Positions 328 to 63,075 of a stretch of DNA of 64,000 bases are shown here, in pieces. How positions within the stretch are numbered: position 1 is the first letter of the stretch; each line of letters opens with the position of its first letter. Both the position numbers and the translations under genes were made by a program. This stretch comes from a virus. The notes beneath the pieces were generated by a model. It was not told the DNA's origin. It made no database searches and was given only the letters and a program-made list of their open reading frames with translations. Location of the stretch: UHGV virus genome UHGV-0057547; one strand, 5' to 3'.

Positions 328-3300
328 ATGGATGGTATAAAGCCACGACATTTATTATTAAATAATGCTCATAAATTAACTGCTGTTGAATGTCCAAATA
401 ATACAGAATTAATAAATATTCAGATTGATAACTGTTCTTATTTACAAAGATTGAATTTACAAGGTTGTAGTTCTTTAGGTAACTTAACATCTTCACAAGT
501 ACTTATAGTTGATGGATGTAATAATTTAAGATATTTAAATGCATATGGTACAATAATTACATCAATAAGAACTAATCAAGAAGGTGGAAACTTAGTTGAA
601 CTATATGTACCTAAAACTTTACAAACATTATCATTAAGAAATCAATATAGTTTAACAACTATAGGAATACCTAATGCTAATGTTCATGGTGATAGTAGAT
701 TATATGACCTTAGAAATAAAGCTAGTAATATAGCAACATTTTCATTAATAAATTGTCCTTTAGTTAATAGATTGACTTACAATTCATCATATAATATTAA
801 TAGTAATTTCTTTGATATACATGGGAATGAAAGAACTTCAAGTGAAATATCTTCTTTAACTTATGTTGGAAAATGGAGAAGGTTGATGGATTGGGGAAAT
901 GGATTAGCTAATGCTAGTGAGATTCATATAGAAAACAGTTGTCTTGATATTGAGGAAATGTCATTTAGAGGTAGTAGTAAATTAGAAAACTTAACATTAA
1001 GAAACTTACCTAATTTAAAGACGTTAATGATAGGAGCAAACTGTGCTGGTTATAGATGGAATACACAAAATAATAATTATGAATCAGATAGATATGATAC
1101 TTATGGTGAATTTAATTGGTCAGGATTAGTTATAAGAGATTGTCCTAATATAGAAGATTTTAGATTTCAAGAATTATTCCCATTCAATTGGAATGGTGGA
1201 TGGAATGGCAACTTAAGTTATCTTACATTTAAAGAAGGTACTAATTCTCTAAATCTTGCTGAAAAATTCCCTAATTTAAAAACATTTTTCTGTAATTTGG
1301 CGACTCAAAATATACATCAAATAATTTTACCTCAATCATTAACTTGTTTAAATACAAGTGCTTGGCAAACAAAACATGATGAAGGTTATCCACATGAAGT
1401 TAAATTAGAAAAATTTAATATAAATAGCGTTTATTTTGAAGGAGAACATACAGATGACTATGTAGGTATTGATTTAGGAAATCATTTAATGCATGATGTT
1501 AGAATAGTAGCACCTTATGCAACTGAATTAATAGGATTAAATATTAAAAATGAATGGGTTAATCCTATATTCCAAACATTTAAAGAAGATAATCATGAAA
1601 CAAGACCTTCATTAACACCTCAAGGTAAAATAGATTTATCTGAATTTAAATGGAAAAGAATATCAAACTGGTTTCAATACATTGACTTTACTAAAGGAAC
1701 TTGTGAAATAGTACAACCTACTAATTGGGATAGTTTCCTAAAAAACATTGAAAGAGCAAGTGGTATGTTCTATCGTTGCAAGAATCCTAATTTCACTTGG
1801 GAATTTGCAATGAAATTCTTTGGTAAAATGGCTGATACAAGTGATAAAAATACAATGTATAAATATGCACAATTAAAAGAACAAACTAGTTTTGAAGAAG
1901 ATGCTGTTGATATGATTTCTAATAAAGGAGCGTTTTATTATGATTATCAAGCTAAACCATTTGAAGGAACTAATTTAAAATATGTTAAATCTATACAGTT
2001 AACAGCAACAGATGGATGTTATGGCTTATTTTATGGTTGCGAAAGTATTATAAAAGTTGGAGATATAAGCATGACAGGAAATAATAACAACTGGTATGCT
2101 AATGAGAGTTTTTTCCAAGATGCAGTAAATCTTGAAGAAGTTGGAAACATTTATTCAACAAGAAATAAAGAAAATGGAACTACGACTAGTGCTCATGCAT
2201 TTTTTAGAAATTGTAAAAAATTAAGAAAAATAGGTAGAATTGATATGTCTGTATCAAATGGCAATTATATGTTTAATGAGTGTACTTCCTTAGTAGATGG
2301 AAGTATAGAACAATTACCATATACTGGAAAGATGACTAATGGTGCTTATATGTTTAGAAACACTAGATTTACAACAATTGAATTGGAAAATTTATCTAGT
2401 TTACAAAATGCTGATAATATGTTTTCTGCTAATCCTAATTTAAAAACAATTCATTTACCAAATATAGATAGAACAAGTCCTTTAAATAATTTGGCAAATA
2501 CATTTAATGGAGATAAGTCCTTAACAAAAATAACAATTGAAGGAGATACTTTACCAATTGGATTAAAAACTATGACTGGTACTTTTAATGGTTGTATTTC
2601 ATTAACTTCATTACCACCAATTCCTCAAGATTTTACATATGATATAAATATGCAATATTGTTGTTATAATTGTGATTCTTTAACTGATGATACGATTTAT
2701 AAAGTAATACCATACAGATGTACACATACTCAATACATGTATGGTTATTGTGATGGATTAATTAATCCAATAGTAGAAGTTAAATCTGATAGTGTTTATG
2801 CTAGACAAATGTTTGAATATTGTAAAAATATTAAAACATTAACAGTTAATTTTACAGGTAGATTATTAAGAACAAGTATGTATTTTGCTCAATATTGTAC
2901 AAATATGACTCAATTTAATATGAAGTTTCCCGATTCTTTATATATGCATGATTATTATGAAACTGGTGTTGCTCATTATAATATGTTACAATATTGTGAA
3001 AATTTATCTATTGTGAATTTAGACATGAGTAGTTTATCAAAGACTAATACTAGAAGTGATTTTGGTGGTATGTTTTATCAAGATAAACATATTACAGAAA
3101 TACATGGATTAGATTTAACATATTTAAAGAAAGTTGTACATCCATTAACATCTAATGGGCAAGACCACTACGATTGGCATAATGATTCTATCACATATGG
3201 TGGTTCATATGATGACTTAAGTGTGCTTGAATTAACTGGTAAACTAAATACAAGTTATAACTTTAGAAATATAACTACAATAACACATACTAAAGAAATA

Positions 3301-3456
3301 CTAAAACATCTTGATGTTGTTACTAATGAAACTTTAGGTTTAACTTATAATATTATGGATGCTATTAATGATGAATTAACTGAATATGTTGACCCTGAAT
3401 TAAAACAATTAGCCCTTACAGCAAGAGATAATGGATGGACTTTCGTAGTTGTATAG
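328..3456 (+). CDS. Tail fibre / receptor-binding protein with leucine-rich repeats (BspA-type LRR blocks in the C-terminal half)
   Basis: 1042-aa ORF. N-terminal LxxLxLxN-type repeats. Central and C-terminal repeated F.NC.SL..I.LP blocks typical of BspA-like LRRs. First gene of the plus-strand structural block. Confidence 0.55.
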   Translation: MDGIKPRHLLLNNAHKLTAVECPNNTELINIQIDNCSYLQRLNLQGCSSLGNLTSSQVLIVDGCNNLRYLNAYGTIITSIRTNQEGGNLVELYVPKTLQTLSLRNQYSLTTIGIPNANVHGDSRLYDLRNKASNIATFSLINCPLVNRLTYNSSYNINSNFFDIHGNERTSSEISSLTYVGKWRRLMDWGNGLANASEIHIENSCLDIEEMSFRGSSKLENLTLRNLPNLKTLMIGANCAGYRWNTQNNNYESDRYDTYGEFNWSGLVIRDCPNIEDFRFQELFPFNWNGGWNGNLSYLTFKEGTNSLNLAEKFPNLKTFFCNLATQNIHQIILPQSLTCLNTSAWQTKHDEGYPHEVKLEKFNINSVYFEGEHTDDYVGIDLGNHLMHDVRIVAPYATELIGLNIKNEWVNPIFQTFKEDNHETRPSLTPQGKIDLSEFKWKRISNWFQYIDFTKGTCEIVQPTNWDSFLKNIERASGMFYRCKNPNFTWEFAMKFFGKMADTSDKNTMYKYAQLKEQTSFEEDAVDMISNKGAFYYDYQAKPFEGTNLKYVKSIQLTATDGCYGLFYGCESIIKVGDISMTGNNNNWYANESFFQDAVNLEEVGNIYSTRNKENGTTTSAHAFFRNCKKLRKIGRIDMSVSNGNYMFNECTSLVDGSIEQLPYTGKMTNGAYMFRNTRFTTIELENLSSLQNADNMFSANPNLKTIHLPNIDRTSPLNNLANTFNGDKSLTKITIEGDTLPIGLKTMTGTFNGCISLTSLPPIPQDFTYDINMQYCCYNCDSLTDDTIYKVIPYRCTHTQYMYGYCDGLINPIVEVKSDSVYARQMFEYCKNIKTLTVNFTGRLLRTSMYFAQYCTNMTQFNMKFPDSLYMHDYYETGVAHYNMLQYCENLSIVNLDMSSLSKTNTRSDFGGMFYQDKHITEIHGLDLTYLKKVVHPLTSNGQDHYDWHNDSITYGGSYDDLSVLELTGKLNTSYNFRNITTITHTKEILKHLDVVTNETLGLTYNIMDAINDELTEYVDPELKQLALTARDNGWTFVVV

Positions 3457-3468
3457 GAGAGTGGTAAA

Positions 3469-4041
3469 ATGAAAATTTATGTAAATAATTTAGGAATAAC
3501 TTGTGTTGAACCTGATGAAGGTTATCTTCTTAAAAAAGGAGATATGATATGTAAAAAAGCATATTTAGGTATTAACGATAGAGCCGAATTATATGAACAA
3601 ATCGTTGATGAAAATTATGTTTATAAAGAAGAGGATGAAAAAGAAGAAGTAACGGAAACTTCTTCTTTGGATTCTATTAAAGCTGAATTAATTAAATTAA
3701 GTAAATCAAAATTAGCTACTTACTTAGAAGAACATCCATTATTTTCTAAAGCTAAATATAAGGAAGGTAGATATTATAATGTAGATAGTGACCATCAATC
3801 AAGAATTGCTTCACAATTATTATTGTATCAAGGTAACATATCACTGGGTTTAGAGTATCAATTAACATGGAATGATACAGGTAGTGTATGTGAAAATTGG
3901 ACTTTTGAAGAATTGTTTAAATTATCCAATGAAATAAATGCTTATATAAAACCAATAATAAAAAAACAACAAGAAATAGAAGTAGATATAAGAAATACTG
4001 AAACTAAAGAAGAATTAGATAAAATAGAAATAAAATATTAA
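3469..4041 (+). CDS. Hypothetical protein, possible tail-fibre accessory/chaperone
   Basis: 190-aa ORF with RBS GGAGAG, immediately downstream of the fibre gene. Acidic. Confidence 0.35.
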   Translation: MKIYVNNLGITCVEPDEGYLLKKGDMICKKAYLGINDRAELYEQIVDENYVYKEEDEKEEVTETSSLDSIKAELIKLSKSKLATYLEEHPLFSKAKYKEGRYYNVDSDHQSRIASQLLLYQGNISLGLEYQLTWNDTGSVCENWTFEELFKLSNEINAYIKPIIKKQQEIEVDIRNTETKEELDKIEIKY

Positions 4042-4062
4042 CGAGTGCAAAAGTCTTATTAT

Positions 4063-4100
4063 ACCTATGAGAGTAAATACTTTCATAGGTATTTTTTATT
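4063..4100 (+). terminator. Rho-independent terminator
   Basis: 8-bp stem ACCTATGA/TCATAGGT followed by ATTTTTTATT. Confidence 0.6.
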
Positions 4101-4997
4101 ATGGAAGGAGTGAAAAAAATGGATACAGAACATGGAAAAATTAATTTAGAAGAATGGGTAAATAAAGAAATTATCAAGGCTAATAAAATAAATAAATATA
4201 ACCAAAATATTGATAATTTATGGATACAAATAGAATATTTAGATTCACTAATTGGAGAAAATGTAGAATCTAATAAAATTATTTTCCATAGTGGATTAGA
4301 AGATGTTGGTGGTGATACAGTAGAAGATTTCTTAAATTATGTAAAAAATCAATTATGGTTATTAGGAAGTGCTCATATAGATATAAATAATTCCATTAAA
4401 ACAATTCAAACCAATTTTAATAATTTAGAAAATAAAAAATATAAAGCTACAGATGTAGAATTCAAAAAATATACATATGTAAATGTTGGAGATTTTTTAA
4501 ATTATTTAGACAATCAATTAACTGCAACTAATGATAAGGTTAAAACGAATGAAAAAAGTATAACAGCTACAAATACTAATGTATCAGAAAATGCCAATAG
4601 CATTACAGGTTTAAGAACTCAATTGAAAGGTATTAATACTTCTCTAGCTTCTATAAAACAAACTACTGATTCATTAAAAAATTTAACTGCTGATAAAATA
4701 ATCTTTGATAATAAAGATTATTCAAATATTATTAACGTTAATGATTTTTTAATTTTCTTAGATAATGCAATAAAAACTAATACAGGTAATATAGATATTA
4801 ATAAAGCAAATATTGAAAATGTTAAAAAAAGTTTAAATAATTTAAATGCTACTGAAGTAAAATATAATAATGAGAATTATTCTAATGTTAATGATTTTTT
4901 AAATTATTTAAATGAAAGTGTTCAAAATAATAAAAAAAATATAGATGAAATTTTAAAGAAAATAGAAGAAATTTCAAATAAATTAAACACTAATTAA
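4101..4997 (+). CDS. Asn/Lys-rich coiled-coil protein
   Basis: 298-aa ORF with RBS GGAAGGAG. Repeated DFLNYL-N-(Q/A/E) heptad-like blocks occur four times. Confidence 0.4.
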   Translation: MEGVKKMDTEHGKINLEEWVNKEIIKANKINKYNQNIDNLWIQIEYLDSLIGENVESNKIIFHSGLEDVGGDTVEDFLNYVKNQLWLLGSAHIDINNSIKTIQTNFNNLENKKYKATDVEFKKYTYVNVGDFLNYLDNQLTATNDKVKTNEKSITATNTNVSENANSITGLRTQLKGINTSLASIKQTTDSLKNLTADKIIFDNKDYSNIINVNDFLIFLDNAIKTNTGNIDINKANIENVKKSLNNLNATEVKYNNENYSNVNDFLNYLNESVQNNKKNIDEILKKIEEISNKLNTN

Positions 4998-5885: not shown

Positions 5886-6269
5886 ATGGATAATAAAGAG
5901 CTATTAGAACAATTAAAAAAATGCCTTAATATATGTGATAATTTAAAAGCTGAGAAAAAAGAATTAATGCAACAATTAGAAGAAACAAAACAAGAAAATG
6001 AACAATTATCTAAAACTTTAGTTGAAGCAAATAACGCAGTTGTTGAAACAATAGAAGTCTTAGGAAAAACAAATGAATCTATTATGGAATTTAAGGAAGG
6101 TGTTTTAAATTATCAAGCCTATGTAACAGTTTCTTTAGATAATATGTATAAAAAAGTTAACAGTATCATAGAAAATGAAGAAGTAAAAAAAGAAGATTTA
6201 AGTAACTTTAAAGCTGAAGTAGAAAATACAATAAAAGAATTAGAAGAATTAAATAAAGGATTAAGCTGA
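5886..6269 (+). CDS. Coiled-coil protein
   Basis: 127-aa ORF overlapping the previous stop (TAGATG). Heptad-rich. Confidence 0.35.
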   Translation: MDNKELLEQLKKCLNICDNLKAEKKELMQQLEETKQENEQLSKTLVEANNAVVETIEVLGKTNESIMEFKEGVLNYQAYVTVSLDNMYKKVNSIIENEEVKKEDLSNFKAEVENTIKELEELNKGLS

Positions 6270-27686: not shown

Positions 27687-28619
27687 TTATTTATTATCTT
27701 CATCATCTTCATATTTACTTAATATTTCACCTAATGTTTTAGATGATTCATCTTCAACTTCATCCTCTTTATCTTCTACTTCTTCATCTTCATCATCTTC
27801 TTTATGACATTTGCAATTTCCGTCACATTCACAATTTCCACCACATTTGCATTCTTTCTTATCTTCCATTCCTTCATCTCCTTCCTCATCTTCATCATCA
27901 TTTAATCCTAAAATTTCAGATAAACCTGTGTGTAATAAAGTTATTGCTAATTCTCCTTCTTCCATATCCATTAATTGAGCAAAGGTTTGGACTGCTAAAG
28001 CAGTTGCTTGATTAAATTTTTCATCTAATTCATCCCAATCAGGTTCACAACCTTCATATCCATAATTTATTATTCCTAACTCTATTGCTTCCTCATAGCC
28101 ATAGTATATACATTTTAATCTACTTGCTTCAATTTGTTCTTCAGGTATATTTGTTTGTTCTCTTATCATCTTATCATATAAATCATCCATATAATCACTA
28201 TGGTCTAAATCACTTCTAACTTCTTCTCTATATCCCATATAATGAGAACGACTACTATGATTCATACCAGCAAATAATTTATCTGCTGTCCTTTTATTAA
28301 ATGCTATATATATTATGAATGCCATAGACATACAAGTTATTCCATTCGCTATTAAAGGTATCCCTAATTCTTGCATCTCTTTTATTCTTGATATAATTAA
28401 GTTACCATCATATATATTTCCTCCGGGAGAGTTTATAGTAACTGTTATCATAGGAAATTTTTGTTGCATAATTTCTTTTATATAAGAAGTCTCCATTTTA
28501 TATGATGTAAATTCATCTATTATATCTTGTGTTTCTTCAATAAACTTATTAGATACATTATCATCAATTATTCCAGTTATAAATAATTCAGTTCTTAATC
28601 TATTTTTTTTATCTACCAT
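27687..28619 (-). CDS. ClpP-family serine protease with Cys-rich / acidic C-terminal extension
   Basis: ClpP core INSPGGNIYDG...GITCMSMAF. The tail carries KECKCGGNCECDGNCKCHKEDDEDEE (metallothionein-like) and a poly-acidic end. Confidence 0.6.
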   Translation of the reverse strand: MVDKKNRLRTELFITGIIDDNVSNKFIEETQDIIDEFTSYKMETSYIKEIMQQKFPMITVTINSPGGNIYDGNLIISRIKEMQELGIPLIANGITCMSMAFIIYIAFNKRTADKLFAGMNHSSRSHYMGYREEVRSDLDHSDYMDDLYDKMIREQTNIPEEQIEASRLKCIYYGYEEAIELGIINYGYEGCEPDWDELDEKFNQATALAVQTFAQLMDMEEGELAITLLHTGLSEILGLNDDEDEEGDEGMEDKKECKCGGNCECDGNCKCHKEDDEDEEVEDKEDEVEDESSKTLGEILSKYEDDEDNK

Positions 28620-30617: not shown

Positions 30618-31898
30618 TTAACTTATCCTTTTATATCTTTTATTATGATTCCAATTTATATATTTCCATACTAATTTAGTCCCATCTTTTAACTTACCAC
30701 AATAATTTCTTTTACCTTGACAACATGAACATAAATTTTTAATATTAATATTATAATATGCAGAACCTTCATTTAAAGTATAAAAAATTCTATTTGTTGT
30801 TATACATATAACACTTCTTGATTTAGAATTATTTTTTCCACTATTTCTAATACCTTTTTCTTTTCTTGATTTTTCTACACTATAATCACATTTACCTATA
30901 ATATATCCATGCTTTAAATATTTTGCAACTGTTTGACGACATATATTTAATATATTACCTATTTCAACCGTATTATGTATTCCACTATTCCATAATTTCC
31001 AAGCCTTTATACATAAACTATTTTGACTTTCTTCCCATGCTAATTTCCAATCAATATTGCTTAAGTCAAAACATGGTGACAACTCTTTTATGATATTTTC
31101 TTTTAACCATTCTAATTCACTATATCTACAATCAATTACTATATAATTATTAATATGATTTTTAGCACATTTATATTTAAATAAATCATTCATTTGTTCT
31201 TGTTTTAAAGGTTTCCAATAATTTGCTTTATTTTCTATATAATGTTGTTCTCCATGAGTTTCTATTATCATGTTATGTCTAGGTAAATAAAAATCATATT
31301 CAAAATATCCACACCATTTAAAATTTGATTTATTTAATTGATATATAAAATCTTCATCTAATTGTTTTAATACATTTGACATAAACTTTTCAGTTATAGG
31401 TAAACCATCAGAACAAAATTCACATGAATATCTTCTTTTTACTACATTATCTAATATTTTTTTATTTTTTGATATATTACCACAATCTAAACATTTAAAA
31501 TAATATTTTTTATGACTTTTACAAGATATATTATAACAATCATCAAAAATTAAATCATTCTCAGTTATAGCAATCATTTTAGCTACATTTGGATAATTAT
31601 ATGCTAAACTATCTTTATAATGAACTTTATGATTTCCACAATATCCACATTTTCTATTATTATAAAAATTACTACAACTTATTTCGTACCCAATTTTATT
31701 GCCTTCTCTATCATAATTATGGTAATCATTTTCTAAACAATATAGCCAAACTTTTTTATTTGATTGTTTTCTGATTTCATAAGGATGAATATCTAACTCA
31801 TTATTCTTCTCCCAATTCCATATGTCATTTAAATTTAATCCTAATTCAACTTCTATATGATAAGCAAACGAATTATCATATTTTATTTTCTTATTCAT
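30618..31898 (-). CDS. Homing-endonuclease-like protein: Zn-ribbons + PD-(D/E)XK (DUF559-like) nuclease domain + shared C-terminal DNA-binding module
   Basis: Multiple CxxC pairs. YDFYLPRHNMIIETHGEQHY nuclease motif. C-terminal CSCCQGKRNYCGKLKDGTKLVWKYI. Paralog of 52646..54067. Confidence 0.5.
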   Translation of the reverse strand: MNKKIKYDNSFAYHIEVELGLNLNDIWNWEKNNELDIHPYEIRKQSNKKVWLYCLENDYHNYDREGNKIGYEISCSNFYNNRKCGYCGNHKVHYKDSLAYNYPNVAKMIAITENDLIFDDCYNISCKSHKKYYFKCLDCGNISKNKKILDNVVKRRYSCEFCSDGLPITEKFMSNVLKQLDEDFIYQLNKSNFKWCGYFEYDFYLPRHNMIIETHGEQHYIENKANYWKPLKQEQMNDLFKYKCAKNHINNYIVIDCRYSELEWLKENIIKELSPCFDLSNIDWKLAWEESQNSLCIKAWKLWNSGIHNTVEIGNILNICRQTVAKYLKHGYIIGKCDYSVEKSRKEKGIRNSGKNNSKSRSVICITTNRIFYTLNEGSAYYNINIKNLCSCCQGKRNYCGKLKDGTKLVWKYINWNHNKRYKRIS

Positions 31899-32133: not shown

Positions 32134-34040
32134 TTATATGAAAAATATACTATTATCTTTATCAGCACAAATTATTTTAGTAGTTTTATTTGATTTTCTA
32201 AGTTCTTCTTCCATCTTATCTCTAAATTTATATTTACTATCATCGCTATGATGTATAACAATTAAATTAGTATTGATACCTTTCATCATTTTAATTATTT
32301 CTTTTCCTTGTATATGAGAAGACCATGTATTATATCTTATGACTTTAGCTTTCTTTTTAAATGACATATTTTCAATTTTAACTTCTTTAGTATTGTCGTT
32401 TAATAATAATCCTCCTACTGTTGTTGGAGCACAATAACCAATTATCATTATAGTATAATTACTATCCTCTATATTTGCTTTTAAATGATTTAATATTCTA
32501 CCTATATTACACATGCCAGCAGATGATATTACAATTTTTTGTTGTTCTTTATTAAGTGCTAAATTCATAGATGTCTCAAAGTCTTTTACAAAATGAAGTT
32601 TTTCCCATGATAATATTTGTTCAAATATGTCTTTATCTTCCTTGTTTAATATTTGTTTATAAACATCATTGATTTCCAAAGAAAGTTTACCATCTAAGAA
32701 TATAGGAGTTTTAAAATTTGGGTCATTAGAAAAAGTATTATATAAGTAATATAATAAATCTTGAGTTCTAGCTTGAGCAAAAGCTGGTATTAAAATTGAA
32801 TGACCTTGTTTTAATTCATTAATTATATCATCTTTCATTTTTTTTCTTTCTTTTTCAATATCTTTTGCATTAAATCCTCTTGATAAATCTGAATAAGTTG
32901 CTTCTGTTATTACTAAATTGGCATTTGATATAGTTTTAGTTTTTTTACGGAATGGTTGTTGATTATTAAAACTACCTGTATCTCCACTATAATATATTTT
33001 TTTTGTAACTCCACTTGGCATTTTAAAGAATAATTCTATTGAAGTTGCTCCTACTATATGGTTATTTGGCAAAAGTCTAAAGCTAACATATTCATTTAAC
33101 TCATGTATAACATCTTCTTCATAAGTAGAAGTTTTTGATAACATTCTATATACATCGCTTTCAGTATAAAGAGGTTCTACCTTATATCCTTGATTACTCA
33201 TTTGTCTACAATTTCTTTGTAATATATAAGCACCATCTATCAATAAAGGTTCAGATAATTCTTTATTCTCATAACCCATAATAAATTTATCTACATTATC
33301 TACTATAGCTGGTAGATTTCCTATATGGTCTAGTGATTTCAAAGATGTGAATGAGATACAAAACAAGCTTTTATTTGACCACATTCACAAACTTTTTCAA
33401 CCACCCCCTTATTAACCACATATTCTTCTCTTAAAGCACCATTCATTTGAACCATACCACATTCAATAAGAACTTTTTCATAGTCTCCTTCTTTTGTTGG
33501 ATATGATAAAAGTATAGATGTTCCAACAACACCATTATGACTTTCTCCTACAAATTCAACTATTACTTTATTTTTATTTTTCTTACTTATAATATATGGA
33601 TTCTTTTTCTTCTTTTTCTTTTTCTTAATTACATTGAGATTTTCTTTTCTACAATCTAAAAAATCACCATTTATAAACTCTATTTTATTATCATTTCCTA
33701 ATATATAATTTTGTAAAGTTGTATTTTTGCCTAGCACATCTCCAATAATACAAGAATGTTTTTTGTTCCATCTTACATTTTTACATGTTTTTACATCGTC
33801 TAAATCTATCAACACTCTTTCTTCAAGCTCTTCTTGAAACAAGGCATCATACAATACAATTTCAGCATAATCTTTATGTATTATTATTTCATTATTGTCA
33901 AATTCTGTTATAGGACTATCTGATATACAGAAACCATATTTCCTATATTCGTCCCAATGTTTTTTGCAAAGTCCATTTTTATTTTTTTTGCTTAATAGTT
34001 TTCCACATTGGTTACAGTATTTTTTATTATCTTTGTTCAT
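32134..34040 (-). CDS. HNH-endonuclease N-terminal domain fused to an MBL-fold beta-CASP-type nuclease, with the MBL HxHxDH motif interrupted by an 11-nt stop-containing insert
   Basis: Two track ORFs (33339..34040 and 32134..33384). Frame A ends FVSHSHL-TGA. Frame B continues DHIGNLP after the 11-nt TGAAATCACTA (plus strand 33331-33341). Removing it restores FVSHSHLDHIG. The N-terminal 140 aa carry a Zn-finger and HNH-like motif INGDFLDCRKENLNV. Confidence 0.55.
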
Positions 34041-34619: not shown

Positions 34620-35018
34620 TTAATCTACTCCTAATTCTGCAATATTTGTATTAAAATTTTCATTTAAGTATTCACGCAAAATATGCCTATGGCAAAAATC
34701 AGTAGACTTTTCATAGCATAATAGCACAATTTCCGTATCTGTAATTCCTTCATAATCATATAAGTCTTCAAGTATTTGCTCTAAGTCTAACTCTTTTAAT
34801 TTATCAGTATACGCATTTATAAAATCTTCTTGTGACATTTTGTTGTTCTTTAGTTTAAAAACATTGTCACTAGATGGAGCTAATAATTTATATTCCATAT
34901 AATACTCTTCTCTATCTAAGAACCATTTAGGCAAACTGGTTGAAATTAATACAGGCATATATCTATTCTTTTCTTCTTTTGGCAACCTAGAAAATTTCGC
35001 ATAATAACTAGTCTTCAT
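34620..35018 (-). CDS. DUF488-like protein
   Basis: ISTSLPKW ... LLAPS pattern. Confidence 0.35.
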   Translation of the reverse strand: MKTSYYAKFSRLPKEEKNRYMPVLISTSLPKWFLDREEYYMEYKLLAPSSDNVFKLKNNKMSQEDFINAYTDKLKELDLEQILEDLYDYEGITDTEIVLLCYEKSTDFCHRHILREYLNENFNTNIAELGVD

Positions 35019-35031
35019 AAAATTCCTCCTT

Positions 35032-36630
35032 TTATTTATTTAATTTTCTATATTCATATTCTTCTTTATTTAATTCTTCTATTTCTTCTTCATTAAGTAA
35101 ATGATATTCATCACACCATATTTCAAACTCTCCATTTTGTACCCACTTTGTTTTAATTATTGTATTTCCGTCTTTATCTGTTGTTTCAACTTCTTTTTTT
35201 TCTTTTTTTGCCTTTTGGAACATATGATATACATTAATTACACTAAATGCTTTAAACGGTTGTGCTTCATAAAATCCTTCACCAACTTTTACCTCCATAG
35301 TTTTTCCAGTGCTTATATTAAAAATCCATGCTTTTTTATTCTTAAATTTAGTTACAACGTCAATAACAATACAAGTTGATGAATCATAATCTTCAAAATA
35401 ATAATTACATTCTCCAGTCATTTCAAGATTAATTTTAACTTTATCTATTGATGGCATTTCGCTATCTTCTATGTTCGACATTAATTCATTACATAATTCT
35501 AATGCTTTTTCTACTTTATATTGTTTATATTTATCTTCTTTACTCTTTTCAGTTGCATATTTTTCTATTATTTCTTTAGGGTATGGTAAATTAATTTTAT
35601 TAAATGATACTTCACCTTTTTTACTTTTTATTTTTTTACTTATTATATTTTCATATAACTTTATTATATCTAATAATTTTTGAGATTTACCAAATTCCTT
35701 GAAGAAATCTATTGATATCAGTATATTGAGTTGTCTTGAGTTTATAGATGTTTTATCATTTAAATCAATAAGTAAATCCATAAAACTATCATATTTATTA
35801 TCTTTTAACATATATAATTCTTGTGATACTTGTTCGTTCATATATTTTATACTAGCCATACCTTTATATATAGAGTTACTTTCTTTATCCATAAAATATT
35901 CAGCTTTAGAATATCTAAATTTAGGAGGTAATAATTTTATATCAAAATAGCTTAATTCTTTTATTAGTCTATTTGTTCTAGTTGAATCATCGGAATAAAT
36001 AGATAGGGCAACTGTATAATACTCAAGAGGATAATGTGATTTTAAAAATGCACCATATAGACTATCATAAGCATAAGAAAGTGAATGTGAAGCATTGAAT
36101 GAATATTTTGAAGCATCATTAACTACTTGCCATGTTTCTTCAAAACCATCTATTGAACCAACTTTATCTATCCAACCTTTTTTTAATTTTTCTTCTAGTT
36201 CTATTAATTCTTTTTCTTTAAATTTTTTCTTTGATATTTTTTTTATAATTCCATATGTTTCAGGTTCAGGAATACCTAACCATATTAAATATTTCATAAT
36301 AGATTCTTGATACATTAAATAATGATAACTATCTTCTAATAAATCATCTAATTCTTTTACGCCTGTTGTATATGGTTTCCTTTCTATAAAATTATCTAAT
36401 AAAGAAGCAAATCCAGGTCTAATAGATGCAACAAAAGCACTCATTTCAGCTACACTAGAAATTTTATATCTTGATGCTAAATTAGTTGCAAAATCTGAAT
36501 CAGATTGATTTATTGTGCAAGTTATTTTATCTTCATATATTTTAAATGTTTTTTCATCTAACATTTTTTCTAATTCTTTAATAGTTGGTATTTTAATATT
36601 AGCTAATTCACAAGTTTTTCTTATTAAAGT
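35032..36630 (-). CDS. dnaE: DNA polymerase III alpha (DnaE-like), exon 2 (fingers and C-terminal domains)
   Basis: IRPGF...FIERKPYTTG...YQESIMKYLIWLGIPEPETYG block matches the DnaE fingers. The frame stays open upstream of the annotated ATG (36564) to about 36630. Confidence 0.65.
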   Translation of the reverse strand, partial: TLIRKTCELANIKIPTIKELEKMLDEKTFKIYEDKITCTINQSDSDFATNLASRYKISSVAEMSAFVASIRPGFASLLDNFIERKPYTTGVKELDDLLEDSYHYLMYQESIMKYLIWLGIPEPETYGIIKKISKKKFKEKELIELEEKLKKGWIDKVGSIDGFEETWQVVNDASKYSFNASHSLSYAYDSLYGAFLKSHYPLEYYTVALSIYSDDSTRTNRLIKELSYFDIKLLPPKFRYSKAEYFMDKESNSIYKGMASIKYMNEQVSQELYMLKDNKYDSFMDLLIDLNDKTSINSRQLNILISIDFFKEFGKSQKLLDIIKLYENIISKKIKSKKGEVSFNKINLPYPKEIIEKYATEKSKEDKYKQYKVEKALELCNELMSNIEDSEMPSIDKVKINLEMTGECNYYFEDYDSSTCIVIDVVTKFKNKKAWIFNISTGKTMEVKVGEGFYEAQPFKAFSVINVYHMFQKAKKEKKEVETTDKDGNTIIKTKWVQNGEFEIWCDEYHLLNEEEIEELNKEEYEYRKLNK

Positions 36631-36985
36631 CCAAACGGTAACTGCAAGATACGTTAATACCGTTCCTTTCGGAATACTTTAACACCCATTTAAGGGTCGG
36701 ACTAGACTATACCTTTATCTTCGACATTACTCGTTAAGATATGCCTATTATAGTCGTTGAAGGTTTCCCATCTTAAAGGGACTTCCCTGCTGATTATCCA
36801 TTCATTCACCCTTAGCACTCTCACAAGGCTTTTATTTCAGCTTAGGCAATCCTTATAATTTTTTCTGCTTTCGCAACCATCAAGTTTAATGTTACCATTT
36901 ACTTTGTGGTTTATAAGGCTTTAGGAACTCCCAGCAATTTAAGGCATCATAATCTACATAATTTCTTATATAGACGACTATTAAA
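36631..36985 (-). ncRNA. Group I self-splicing intron (ORF-less) in dnaE
   Basis: Structured, GC-richer 355-420-nt ORF-free segment between the two DnaE halves. P/Q/R/S core elements occur in the right order on the minus strand (AAAUUGCUGGGAG; AAUCAGCAGGGAAG; UUCAACGACUAUAA; AAGGUAUAGUCUAGUCCG, giving P7 GACUA/UAGUC). Candidate IGS GUCGU pairs with exon end AUGAU. Exact 3' splice site unresolved. Confidence 0.75.
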
Positions 36986-38668
36986 TTAATCATTCTTTAA
37001 ATATTTATAAACATCACAATTATAACCATCTAAATTACAACATATTCCTTCTTTAGTTTTTATTAAACCAATTTCTTCTGAAACATTTTTATCATATAGT
37101 AACATTGAACAAGGTGATTCTGATATACTTTCCACTACTCCCTTAAATACTTTTGAATCTTTTATTATTTTTCCCCAATATTCATCGTTTTCATATTGCT
37201 CTAAATTTTTAGCTATTTCATCGTATTTACTAACATGCATATCATTTGCTTTACACCATAATCTAAAAGCAGATGAATCTTGTAAAGGTTTATATGATAA
37301 AATCCAAGCACAATTTTCTTCGCCTAATAAATCTTTAGTTGCTTGTATAAAAACTGAACGGTCTTCTGTATTTAAATCAACATCGGGTAATGAACGAGTA
37401 CCTAATATACGTTCTATACTCATAAATCTAGTTGGATACAATGGAACTGGTGCTGATAATCTATCTATTTCTGTTAAGCCTAATAATTTGTTTATAAGAA
37501 AACTTACAGCAGAACCTCTTCCTGTCTTAGTTAATAAGCCATTATATTTATTTATTGCTCTTTGACATATTTTATAATCTAATATAAAATAATCTTCCAT
37601 ATGTGTTTTCTCAATTATATTAAATTCATATCTTATAGCTTCTAAATATTCATTCCATCTCTCTTTAGGTATTGTATCTCTTATTTCCATCCATCTTTTA
37701 TTAATTATATCTTTTAATTCTTTATTTGGATTATTTGATATTGATGGCATTTTAATTTCTTTATCTAATATAATATTTTCACATTCATCAAAAATTAAAG
37801 TATTATTAATTGCATCTTTTATTTGCTCTTCATTTAATATATTTTGTTTATTATATCGTTCTATTATAGTTTCTACATCAGGATAATCTAATATAAAGTT
37901 TGTTTCTTCTTTATATATGATGCCTTTTGCTTTAAGAAATAATTCTCTATAAATATAATCTTGTGGATTAATATAATGTGAATCGTTACCATGAATAATA
38001 TTAATATTATATTTTTCACTTAAGCATAGAATTTTTTTATTAAGATTTTTTTGTATATCTTCATTATGGTTTTGAACTTCTAAATAAAAATTATTACCAA
38101 AATATTCTTTCATTTTTATAATCCAATCGTCTAAGCCTTCATCATTTCTTAAACGACCAGCAACACAAGCAGTTGTTATAATTGTATTATTTGGATTAAT
38201 ACTAAATAATAATTCATCATCTATTCTATTTTTATAATATACCCCATCTATATTGCTATAGGATAATATTCTATTTAAGTCTCTATATCCATCTTTATTT
38301 TTTGCTATTATAACTAAGTGATAATTAGAGTTATCTTTTTCTTTTCTATCTTTAACATAATATGCTTCTGCACCAACTACCATTTTAATACCTTTATATG
38401 ATTTATCGCATGTATCTTTATATTTACATTTTTCACAATTATGTTTTGTATATTCATTATTTTCTTGAGTAAGTTTTACACATACTTCACTACATAAAGT
38501 ATTTGCTTCATATACATTACCTTGATAACCATGTTCAGTAGTAAAATATATTGCATCTTTACCATCTAATTCAATTGCTCTAACTATATATTCTATTGGT
38601 TTAGTAACCACATCTAAACTTTTAATATTGCTATATATTTTATGTGAATGATAATTATTACATCTCAT
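36986..38668 (-). CDS. dnaE: DNA polymerase III alpha (DnaE-like), exon 1 (PHP and palm domains)
   Basis: PHP start NNYHSHKIYS. GRGSAVSFLINKLLGLTEIDRL. Catalytic LPDVDL (PDxD). Ends ...YLKND at the position of the third catalytic Asp. Confidence 0.7.
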   Translation of the reverse strand: MRCNNYHSHKIYSNIKSLDVVTKPIEYIVRAIELDGKDAIYFTTEHGYQGNVYEANTLCSEVCVKLTQENNEYTKHNCEKCKYKDTCDKSYKGIKMVVGAEAYYVKDRKEKDNSNYHLVIIAKNKDGYRDLNRILSYSNIDGVYYKNRIDDELLFSINPNNTIITTACVAGRLRNDEGLDDWIIKMKEYFGNNFYLEVQNHNEDIQKNLNKKILCLSEKYNINIIHGNDSHYINPQDYIYRELFLKAKGIIYKEETNFILDYPDVETIIERYNKQNILNEEQIKDAINNTLIFDECENIILDKEIKMPSISNNPNKELKDIINKRWMEIRDTIPKERWNEYLEAIRYEFNIIEKTHMEDYFILDYKICQRAINKYNGLLTKTGRGSAVSFLINKLLGLTEIDRLSAPVPLYPTRFMSIERILGTRSLPDVDLNTEDRSVFIQATKDLLGEENCAWILSYKPLQDSSAFRLWCKANDMHVSKYDEIAKNLEQYENDEYWGKIIKDSKVFKGVVESISESPCSMLLYDKNVSEEIGLIKTKEGICCNLDGYNCDVYKYLKND

Positions 38669-49481: not shown

Positions 49482-49585
49482 AATAATTCCTCCTTATTAA
49501 CAATAATATGAAAATACTAAACTATCATTTTCCGTTTCAATATTTATTCTTAAATTTCCCTATTCAACGTGTTCTTTTTCACTTT

Positions 49586-49650
49586 ATATAAGCTACTCAA
49601 GTTTTTATAACACTCCAAGGGCGTAAATTCGGATTTGAACATCCCTACAT
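49586..49650 (-). promoter_or_regulatory. Conserved structured 5'-leader element, copy A
   Basis: Core ACTCAAGTTT.TAT.A.ACTCC.AGGGCGTAAATTCGGA..TGAAC shared with 63010..63075. Lies between the promoter and the gene start. Confidence 0.45.
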
Positions 49651-62942: not shown

Positions 62943-63009
62943 ACAATAACGTTTCAGTGCTTGTTACAATTTCAGAACAAGCTTCCCTATTCATCGTATC
63001 CTCTTTCCT

Positions 63010-63075
63010 TTTTACAAAGTACTCAAGTTTGTATGATACTCCCAGGGCGTAAATTCGGAACTGAACTTTCCTATT
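63010..63075 (-). promoter_or_regulatory. Conserved structured 5'-leader element, copy B
   Basis: Same core as 49586..49650; the hairpin stem differs by compensatory changes (UACAAA/UUUGUA vs UUAUAA/UUAUAA). Confidence 0.45.

Follow-up and report, generated by a model that had tools for sequence, protein, structure and literature searches.

We analysed a 64,000-nt stretch of the viral genome UHGV-0057547 (hereafter the window), in which a gene on the minus strand is split by an 11-nt interruption that carries an in-frame UGA and falls inside the metal-binding motif HxHxDH of a nuclease. Comparison with related loci strongly suggests that the two open reading frames (ORFs) flanking the interruption are one gene, predicted to encode a beta-CASP metallo-beta-lactamase (MBL) nuclease of ~631 amino acids (aa), and that the full-length protein is expressed by a programmed short-range translational bypass, or stop-hop. 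We put the probability of this joint reading at roughly 0.78.

On the minus strand the junction reads GTA TCT CAT TCA CAT CTT (33344-33342) TGA (33341-33339) AAT CAC TA (to 33331) GAC (33330-33328) CAT ATA GGA. ORF1 (34040-33339, minus strand, 233 aa) has the C-terminus FVSHSHL, and ORF2, which lies in the -1 frame relative to ORF1 and extends to 32134, reads DHIGNLPAIV. If nucleotides 33341-33331 are left out, the junction becomes FVSHSHLDHIG and the metal motif HSHLDH is whole again. The CTA at 33331-33333 is the earliest CUN triplet past the take-off codon in whichever frame the sequence is read. The +1 frame past CUU UGA A meets a stop within a few codons, and the -1 frame is open across the gap. 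The initial annotation of this stretch had described an 11-nt, UGA-containing gap inside HxHxDH, the restoration of MBL motif 2 by its deletion, and a geometry of CTT, TGA, CTA and GAC; all three are recovered when the junction is read directly on the minus strand (33344-33328), where the geometry is exact and the repaired frame matches the Pfam family Beta-Casp at 1e-25. The same annotation remarked that the flank AUUCACAU resembles the insert, a similarity that does not appear meaningful, as other lineages do without it. The elements of the gene are listed below.

33342-34040, minus strand: coding part of ORF1, comprising an N-terminal zinc-ribbon/HNH-like domain (~150 aa) and the first 77 residues of the MBL domain, and ending FVSHSHL at the take-off codon
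33401-33410, minus strand: Shine-Dalgarno (SD)-like element AAGGGGGTGG, in 19 of 19 distinct interrupted upstream sequences (clades A and B) and 0 of 45 uninterrupted ones
33341-33395, minus strand: predicted 5' stem-loop, from a comparison of duplex energies in interrupted and uninterrupted genes
33342-33344, minus strand: take-off codon CTT (Leu, the x before the Asp of HxHxDH), from the sequence and from CTN in 13 of 13 Leu lineages
33339-33341, minus strand: 0-frame stop TGA (a 'shifty stop') directly 3' of the take-off codon, with a stop in this place in 13 of 13 classes
33331-33341, minus strand: 11-nt coding gap TGAAATCACTA, proposed to be left undecoded, with homologous gaps of 1, 2, 5, 6, 7, 8 and 9 nt in relatives
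33331-33333, minus strand: putative landing codon CTA (Leu), immediately 5' of the Asp codon; nine of the 13 Leu representatives have CTA here, the Val lineage GTA
32134-33330, minus strand: ORF2, 398 codons, from GAC (the Asp of HxHxDH) to the stop TAA at 32136-32134, covering the remainder of the MBL domain and the beta-CASP domain

Besides its Beta-Casp match, the repaired protein has weak matches to Lactamase_B and RMMBL in Pfam, and a profile of the family retrieves from the PDB the nucleases CPSF73, Integrator-11, TTHA0252, archaeal CPSF and the type VII CRISPR nuclease Cas14 (7e-46 and below). AlphaFold models the repaired protein with a mean predicted local distance difference test (pLDDT) of 93.3 and a predicted template-modelling score (pTM) of 0.90, placing the junction, between L77 and D78, in a loop-to-helix turn of the metal site (pLDDT ~94), and Foldseek assigns the model to the beta-CASP RNase/DNase fold (template-modelling score, TM, 0.73-0.81). 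All beta-CASP catalytic residues are kept in the repaired protein, H168, D194, H416 and H438 being invariant, and HxHxDH is present only once the gap has been removed.

The N-terminal domain (residues 1-150 of ORF1, 33591-34040, minus strand) is conserved across the subfamily. It has a zinc-ribbon-like start, CxxC…CxxH, and a degenerate HNH-like motif, IEFINGDFLDCRKENL, in which Phe replaces the first His. These 150 residues have no match in Pfam, and they would make up the main folded part of the 233-aa termination product.

Conservation of the junction and selection on both halves

Relatives were gathered by a protein search, from the DNA of its matches and by scans of viral, genome and metagenome collections, and about 120 related loci were compared. 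The protein search returned full-length homologues of 625-630 aa that carry HxHxDH, together with many 'proteins' of ~400 aa, 47-69 % identical, that begin a few residues ahead of DH. Among relatives that are 32-69 % identical we distinguish 13 junction classes, the window included, all of them precisely between x and D of HxHxDH. Gap lengths are 1, 2, 5, 6, 7, 8, 9 and 11 nt, all three frames and all three stops (UGA, UAG, UAA) are represented, and in every class the stop directly follows the take-off codon, which is either CUN for Leu or GUC for Val. The classes, each written from the take-off codon onwards, are as follows.

CTT T GAC: gap of 1 nt (L096), the same as the prfB site CUU UGA C
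CTC TA GAT: gap of 2 nt (L094/L095), from CUC to the overlapping CUA, with UAG as the 0-frame stop
CTT TGATA GAC: gap of 5 nt, with AUA before GAC
CTT TAA CTA GAC: gap of 6 nt
CTG TGA CTT GAC: gap of 6 nt
GTC TGA GTA GAC: gap of 6 nt, the Val lineage, only 32 % identical
CTG TGA A CTA GAT: gap of 7 nt
CTG TGA GT CTA: gap of 8 nt
CTT TGA AG CTA: gap of 8 nt
CTT TGA AA CTA: gap of 8 nt
CTT TGA AA CCA: gap of 8 nt
CTT TGA GAA CTA: gap of 9 nt
CTT TGA AATCA CTA: gap of 11 nt, the window

The identical 11-nt junction is shared by four IMG/VR contigs (50-198 kb) and another eight metagenome contigs, which stem from different projects. One relative (L105) departs from L098, with which it otherwise agrees fully, at three A-runs (about 1046, 1092 and 2068), each with a single-A indel that is an assembly or sequencing error, and its 11-nt junction is unchanged. 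A neighbour-joining tree places the interrupted genes in two related clades and has uninterrupted genes branching inside these clades or as sisters to them; the Val lineage stands far off, among uninterrupted lineages, and its interruption is probably independent of those of the Leu clades. Gaps of 6 nt (frame 0) and 8 nt (frame -1) alternate among genes that are 96-99.7 % identical in nucleotide sequence, meaning that the frame of the gap is irrelevant to the gene. The orthologues, to which the initial annotation had looked for presence or absence of the 11 nt, thus include both states, interrupted at the same site by 1-11 nt or uninterrupted (P0004-P0009, L104, L123).

By these comparisons both halves of the gene are under strong purifying selection. 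The ratio of nonsynonymous to synonymous substitution rates (dN/dS, Nei-Gojobori) between interrupted lineages is 0.02-0.44 before the stop and 0.04-0.21 after it, pairs with unlike gap lengths included; for L009 (8 nt) and L018 (6 nt), the C-part omega is 0.057. Apart from the junction itself, neither a stop nor a frameshift occurs in the ~630 codons of the 13 diverged classes.

Codon choice at the junction can be compared with that elsewhere in the phage. Leu is encoded by TTA in 73 % of cases in the phage genome and 15 other conserved Leu columns are dominated by TTA, while the take-off column is CTN in all 13 Leu representatives and the codon 5' of Asp is CTA in nine of them. Take-off and landing codons belong to the same codon box in 10 of the 13 classes, including GUC/GUA in the Val lineage, and the UUU landing codon of the 1-nt class corresponds to a prfB-like +1 shift. 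Uninterrupted relatives have TTA (L123), a single CTA (L104) or GTA (L025-27) at this column. A codon of the form NNA is never used at take-off and almost always at landing; one U34 tRNA might therefore pair by wobble at the take-off codon and by Watson-Crick rules at the landing codon, which would favour both departure and capture.

Stops in the 71 ORFs of the window comprise 54 TAA, 15 TAG and 2 TGA, the last two being the junction itself and the end of a plus-strand ORF (5886-6269) that is probably spurious. TGA does not serve as a sense codon in the window either, and no tRNA genes were found there. There are hints of a host with unusual or slow UGA termination. A recoded genetic code was considered and rejected: coding density, 0.89 under code 11, gains nothing from reading TGA or TAG as sense, and recoding cannot mend an 11-nt gap.

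A megablast search for close annotated phages returned no match to the window, and tblastn retrieved from annotated phages only uninterrupted homologues of <30 % identity and a copy disrupted by an insertion sequence (IS) in Clostridium phage c-st. That copy (AP008983 160535-161092), the sole cultured-phage homologue, is 34 % identical over the N-terminal 190 residues of the MBL part and adjoins, or is truncated by, ISCbt1-d. In L095 an IS605 OrfB/TnpB-like gene (3142-4146) lies directly downstream of the nuclease gene. Two distant beta-CASP loci (L072 and L082, about 2670-2680) have an in-frame TAG where all relatives have Gln (GEY*ANNANF), which suggests that TAG is recoded to Gln in those phages. 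Two 2.6-kb contigs with the 8-nt-gap gene (L091, L092) are binned in GTDB Anaeroplasma sp. and in a Bacilli bacterium, both as fecal metagenome-assembled genomes; this is either a hint to the host or mis-binned phage DNA.

Signals upstream of the take-off codon

A perfect SD-like sequence, AAGGAGGTG (AAGGGGGTGG in the window), is placed with its core 63-67 nt upstream of where the take-off codon ends. Every one of the 19 distinct interrupted sequences from the two Leu clades contains it, as against none of the 45 uninterrupted relatives at that place, which encode the same N-K-E-V/I with AAA GAA GTA/ATA. The codon combination that creates it is made of rare codons (P~8e-4 from the codon usage of the window), and the 57 kb of coding sequence contain just one other strong internal SD-like site. 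The Val lineage has a GGAGG of its own at -39, with a local hairpin directly 3' of it. Internal initiation from the SD-like element was considered and rejected, the spacing to the next ATG/GTG being only 0-2 nt, with no ATG there in the window.

In the window the arms of the predicted hairpin are tgtgaatg (33389-33382) and cattcaca (33353-33346, the HxH codons), and an outer pairing of aaag (33395-33392) with cuuu (33344-33341) closes the stem at the take-off codon. The duplex energy of positions -15..-1 against -60..-19 averages -11.5 kcal/mol (z -2.2) for the 16 interrupted genes compared, against -5.5 (z -0.4) for 19 uninterrupted ones, a difference with p=6e-7 for energy and 7e-5 for z (Mann-Whitney, not phylogeny-corrected). 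The arms occupy differing registers between lineages, and the +1 and +2 classes show little complementarity. Because the inner stems lie in different registers, what argues for the hairpin is this thermodynamic comparison. Minimum free energy z-scores of the whole region do not separate interrupted from uninterrupted genes.

Proposed mechanism and alternative explanations

In the bypass that we propose, the ribosome would decode CUU as Leu and UGA would enter the A site, where termination by release factor 2 (RF2) would yield the truncated 233-aa product. In competition with termination, the peptidyl-tRNA-Leu would unpair from CUU, the mRNA would slide by 11 nt and the anticodon would re-pair with CUA (33333-33331), the first CUN triplet. 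Decoding would restart at GAC and give the exact HSHLDH metal-binding motif, and the hop product would carry the junction peptide ...VSHSHLDHIGNLP... or ...ACFVSHSHLDHIGNLPAIVDNVDK. Refolding of the 5' hairpin on the exiting mRNA would drag the message forward, and the SD-like element could act as an anti-SD anchor or as a spacer of trailing ribosomes, its role being guesswork; under this model the synonymous change of AAGGGGGTGG to AAAGGTGTAG would reduce bypass. [quoted passage not shown]

The hop from CUU across UGA to CUA, as put forward in the initial annotation, draws its support from the comparison of sequences, that is, from the 13 classes, the selection on both halves, the matching of codons and the upstream signals. 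Only re-pairing of the P-site peptidyl-tRNA downstream would give HxH(L/V)DH in every class, and no single type of frameshift explains the interruptions, because the gaps cover frames 0, +1 and -1. It is from these regularities that we infer hopping as the mechanism, the identity of the tRNA and the participation of the SD-like element and hairpin. The likely role of the arrangement would be to limit the amount of full-length nuclease, or to tie that amount to the efficiency of termination.

Several observations weigh against such a programmed hop. The gap is congruent to 2 mod 3 in six of the 13 classes, and the overlapping TTGA/GTGA start also fits reinitiation, which is possible for the -1-frame classes taken singly. 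Three classes are without a matched landing codon, namely AUA (5 nt), CCA (one of the 8-nt classes) and UUU (1 nt), and the 1-, 7- and 9-nt, CCA and CTG-TGA-CTT classes are represented by one contig each. The SD-like element is too distant from the P site for a classical prfB-type action. Taken by itself, the window does not give a significant fold (whole-fold z -1.3, duplex z -2.1), RNAalifold detected no positional covariation of the 5' hairpin and only an invariant SD-like:CAUCUU helix, and the statistics ignore shared ancestry. Finally, synthetic stop-hops in Escherichia coli are of low efficiency (PMC5009743).

Of the alternatives, termination-reinitiation fares best, although we consider it unlikely. 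The ribosome would stop at UGA and restart in the -1 frame at the overlapping TTG (TTGA), producing two polypeptides, HxHL-COOH and fMet-Lys-Ser-Leu-Asp-His..., that form a split nuclease, with the SD-like element tethering the ribosome like a termination upstream ribosomal binding site (TURBS). A correctly framed TTG or GTG does overlap the stop, both in the window and in the classes of 5, 8 and 11 nt, the interruption-linked SD-like element could help if the hairpin brings it near, and gene callers annotate the C part as a separate ORF. However, in six classes (1 nt, 2 nt, the three of 6 nt and 9 nt) the C frame lacks ATG, GTG and TTG alike from the upstream stop to Asp, so that a separate C protein could not include the conserved DH. 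One mechanism should also serve both the 6- and the 8-nt classes, which alternate among nearly identical genes (96-99.7 %). Reinitiation leaves unexplained why CTN stands on both flanks and why Val is matched with Val; TTA TGA, which would offer the better ATGA overlap, is never seen. Moreover, the chain would be cut inside the metal-binding loop, which is predicted with high confidence (pLDDT ~94).

We regard as very unlikely a simple frameshift (-1 or +2) at CUU UGA, such as one by re-pairing from CUU onto the overlapping UUG. The gap would then be translated, giving HSHL-(L)KSL-DH with 3-4 extra residues. It counts for this explanation that UUG can pair with a U34 Leu anticodon through G-U wobble, that the -1 frame is open through the gap, and that CUU UGA is a known shifty stop, with L096 (+1) and L094/L095 (CUC to CUA, +2) appearing to use overlapping re-pairing. 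Against it, frameshifting would place 0 to 4 lineage-dependent residues inside HxHxDH, the spacing of which does not vary in any uninterrupted homologue. Other events (readthrough, +1) would be needed for the in-frame classes of 6 and 9 nt and for that of 7 nt, and the conserved CUA/GUA beside Asp would be left without an explanation.

Removal of the gap at the RNA level, by a mini-intron, editing or transcriptional slippage, is scarcely credible. The phage does splice elsewhere, at a group I intron in DnaE, but 1-11 nt is far too short for any known self-splicing or bulge-helix-bulge intron, and the tool that detected the DnaE intron gave no Rfam match at this site. There is no homopolymer run for slippage, and an obligatory stop with matched flanking codons is a translational, not a splicing, feature. 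The remaining suggestion, entertained in the initial annotation, of a pseudogene inactivated by an 11-bp insertion (or else an assembly artefact), to which a stop and frame change within a catalytic motif and the existence of uninterrupted homologues might point, is effectively refuted by the same junction in ~12 independent assemblies from different projects, by low dN/dS on both halves with no further disabling mutation in any class, and by the co-occurrence of dedicated upstream signals with the interruption.

Returning to the bypass, we offer as a tentative conjecture, with less confidence than the hop itself, that the junction is an evolvable module in which an internal SD anchor and a 5' hairpin 'winch' on a shifty stop could cross any gap of 1-11 nt, +1 and +2 shifts and hops of 5-11 nt being interconvertible. 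At the same motif position, such a module would have had two or more origins, in the Leu clades and in the Val lineage, and may act as a release-factor-sensitive rheostat for a potentially toxic phage nuclease.

Genomic context and known recoding systems

The window comes from ~200-kb uncultivated human-gut phages, has 25 % GC and uses the standard code. The nuclease gene lies downstream of DnaE, in the window as in relatives. DnaE is split by a group I intron (36684-36998, minus strand; RF00028, 61.9 bits vs a gathering score of 50), which was found by a targeted Rfam scan and missed by the whole-window gathering scan; its exons correspond to ORFs 36986-38668 (PHP and pol3_alpha) and 35032-36564 (finger and HHH). 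Just downstream of the nuclease gene (30618-31898, minus strand), a 426-aa ORF with a DUF4379 treble-clef zinc finger, several CxxC pairs and an 'ETHGEQHY' endonuclease-like motif looks like a free-standing gene of the homing-endonuclease type. One relative (L005) has an I-HmuI NUMOD-like ORF in the equivalent place, and clade B loci have no neighbour resembling a homing endonuclease gene. Homing-endonuclease immunity in the style of T4 mobA/gene 60 was set aside, such neighbours being present at some loci only, and is kept as a speculation on origin.

Two copies of the RAGATH-18 RNA motif lie at 49556-49621 and 62983-63047 (both minus strand; 69 and 63 bits). Near the replication genes are an FtsH-like AAA+/M41 protease (42995-44854), a ClpP-like protease (27687-28619), a DHH-family phosphoesterase (39256-41052) and a DUF488 protein (34620-35018), all on the minus strand; this proteolysis-rich set is unusual for a phage.

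A close parallel to the proposed event is found in E. coli, where ribosomes stalled at UGA hop to codons that match the P-site anticodon (PMC6815119). Synthetic stop-hops of +5/+6 were described there by Weiss, Dunn, Atkins & Gesteland in 1987, as summarised in the 2016 Atkins review, which states that in-frame stop-hopping had been shown with synthetic constructs and that in nature 'no occurrences are known' (PMC5009743). As in those constructs, a stop stands between matched codons and the peptidyl-tRNA would re-pair a few nucleotides on, 9 nt giving one amino acid. The 6-nt classes CUU UAA CUA, CUG UGA CUU and GUC UGA GUA reproduce the arrangement exactly, and the window is an 11-nt version of it, in keeping with the likeness to E. 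coli stop-hopping that the initial annotation had noted. Unlike the synthetic hops, which are engineered, inefficient and without stimulators, the nuclease junctions occur naturally, are conserved under selection although their gaps differ in length, and have signals upstream of them.

Bypassing in T4 gene 60 spans 50 nt and involves a 5' stem-loop on the exiting mRNA, an SD-like element and the spacing of trailing ribosomes (10.1101/2024.12.09.627546; for the signals see also PMC5009743). The nuclease gene shares with it matched take-off and landing codons, a stop right 3' of take-off, an SD-like element, two ORFs giving one polypeptide (here predicted) and a place in phage DNA metabolism. 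A 5' stem-loop may be common to both, in our case as complementarity enriched in interrupted genes, without positional covariation. The two differ in gap length (1-11 nt vs 50 nt, which leaves no room for an A-site or take-off stem-loop), in the position of the SD-like element (~65 nt 5' of take-off here, 6 nt 5' of landing there), in having no sequence homology and in the lack of a consistent link to a mobA-type homing endonuclease. The description of the junction as gene 60 in miniature, made in the initial annotation, is therefore apt for the matched codons and the stop, but does not extend to a take-off stem-loop in the gap or a consistent homing endonuclease.

The terminase of Streptomyces phage phiHau3, in which 10-nt inserts are candidates for regulatory bypassing (PMC10732093), likewise combines a short (~10 nt) frame-disrupting insert in a phage gene with insert-free counterparts and a proposed 5' stem-loop with a flanking internal SD. 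There it is a rare sense codon, UUA, linked to the availability of the bldA tRNA, that makes the A site slow, whereas here a stop would do so, and few sequences are involved, without a series of 1-11 nt. With the +1 frameshift of prfB, the RF2 gene, the window shares the shifty stop CUU UGA and a candidate SD-like stimulator, and L096 has CUU U GAC, with Asp next. Competition with RF2 termination would imply sensitivity to the level of RF2, as in prfB. In contrast to prfB, the +1 frame of the window is a dead end and 11 nt have to be skipped, and the SD-like element stands at a distance of ~60 nt, where prfB has its SD 3 nt 5' of CUU; L096 has the prfB shift site but not a proximal SD. The byps of Magnusiomyces capitatus mitochondria, as cited in PMC5009743 and PMC10732093, are GC-rich, mobile-like inserts of 27-55 nt at many sites in many genes. 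They too are short non-coding inserts that are bypassed between matched take-off and landing codons, yet the nuclease gaps are much shorter and confined to one fixed site in one gene family.

Natural bypassing is known from very few systems, namely T4 gene 60 and its homologues, the yeast mitochondrial byps and the candidate phiHau3. Our search of the literature for beta-CASP proteins with frameshifting or bypassing in phages found nothing relevant, and by its sequence features the nuclease interruption would be a new natural variant of translational bypassing. Gene callers split such genes, and dozens of public protein clusters are halves of them. Compared with the systems above, the nuclease offers a natural allelic series at one site, with gaps of 1-11 nt, three stops, two take-off amino acids and uninterrupted controls. 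Its candidate stimulators come and go with the gap, and a cassette of ~110 nt would suffice for a reporter. This series could show how frameshifting grades into hopping, what determines the distance of a hop, and how an SD element and the folding of exiting mRNA drive the forward slide.

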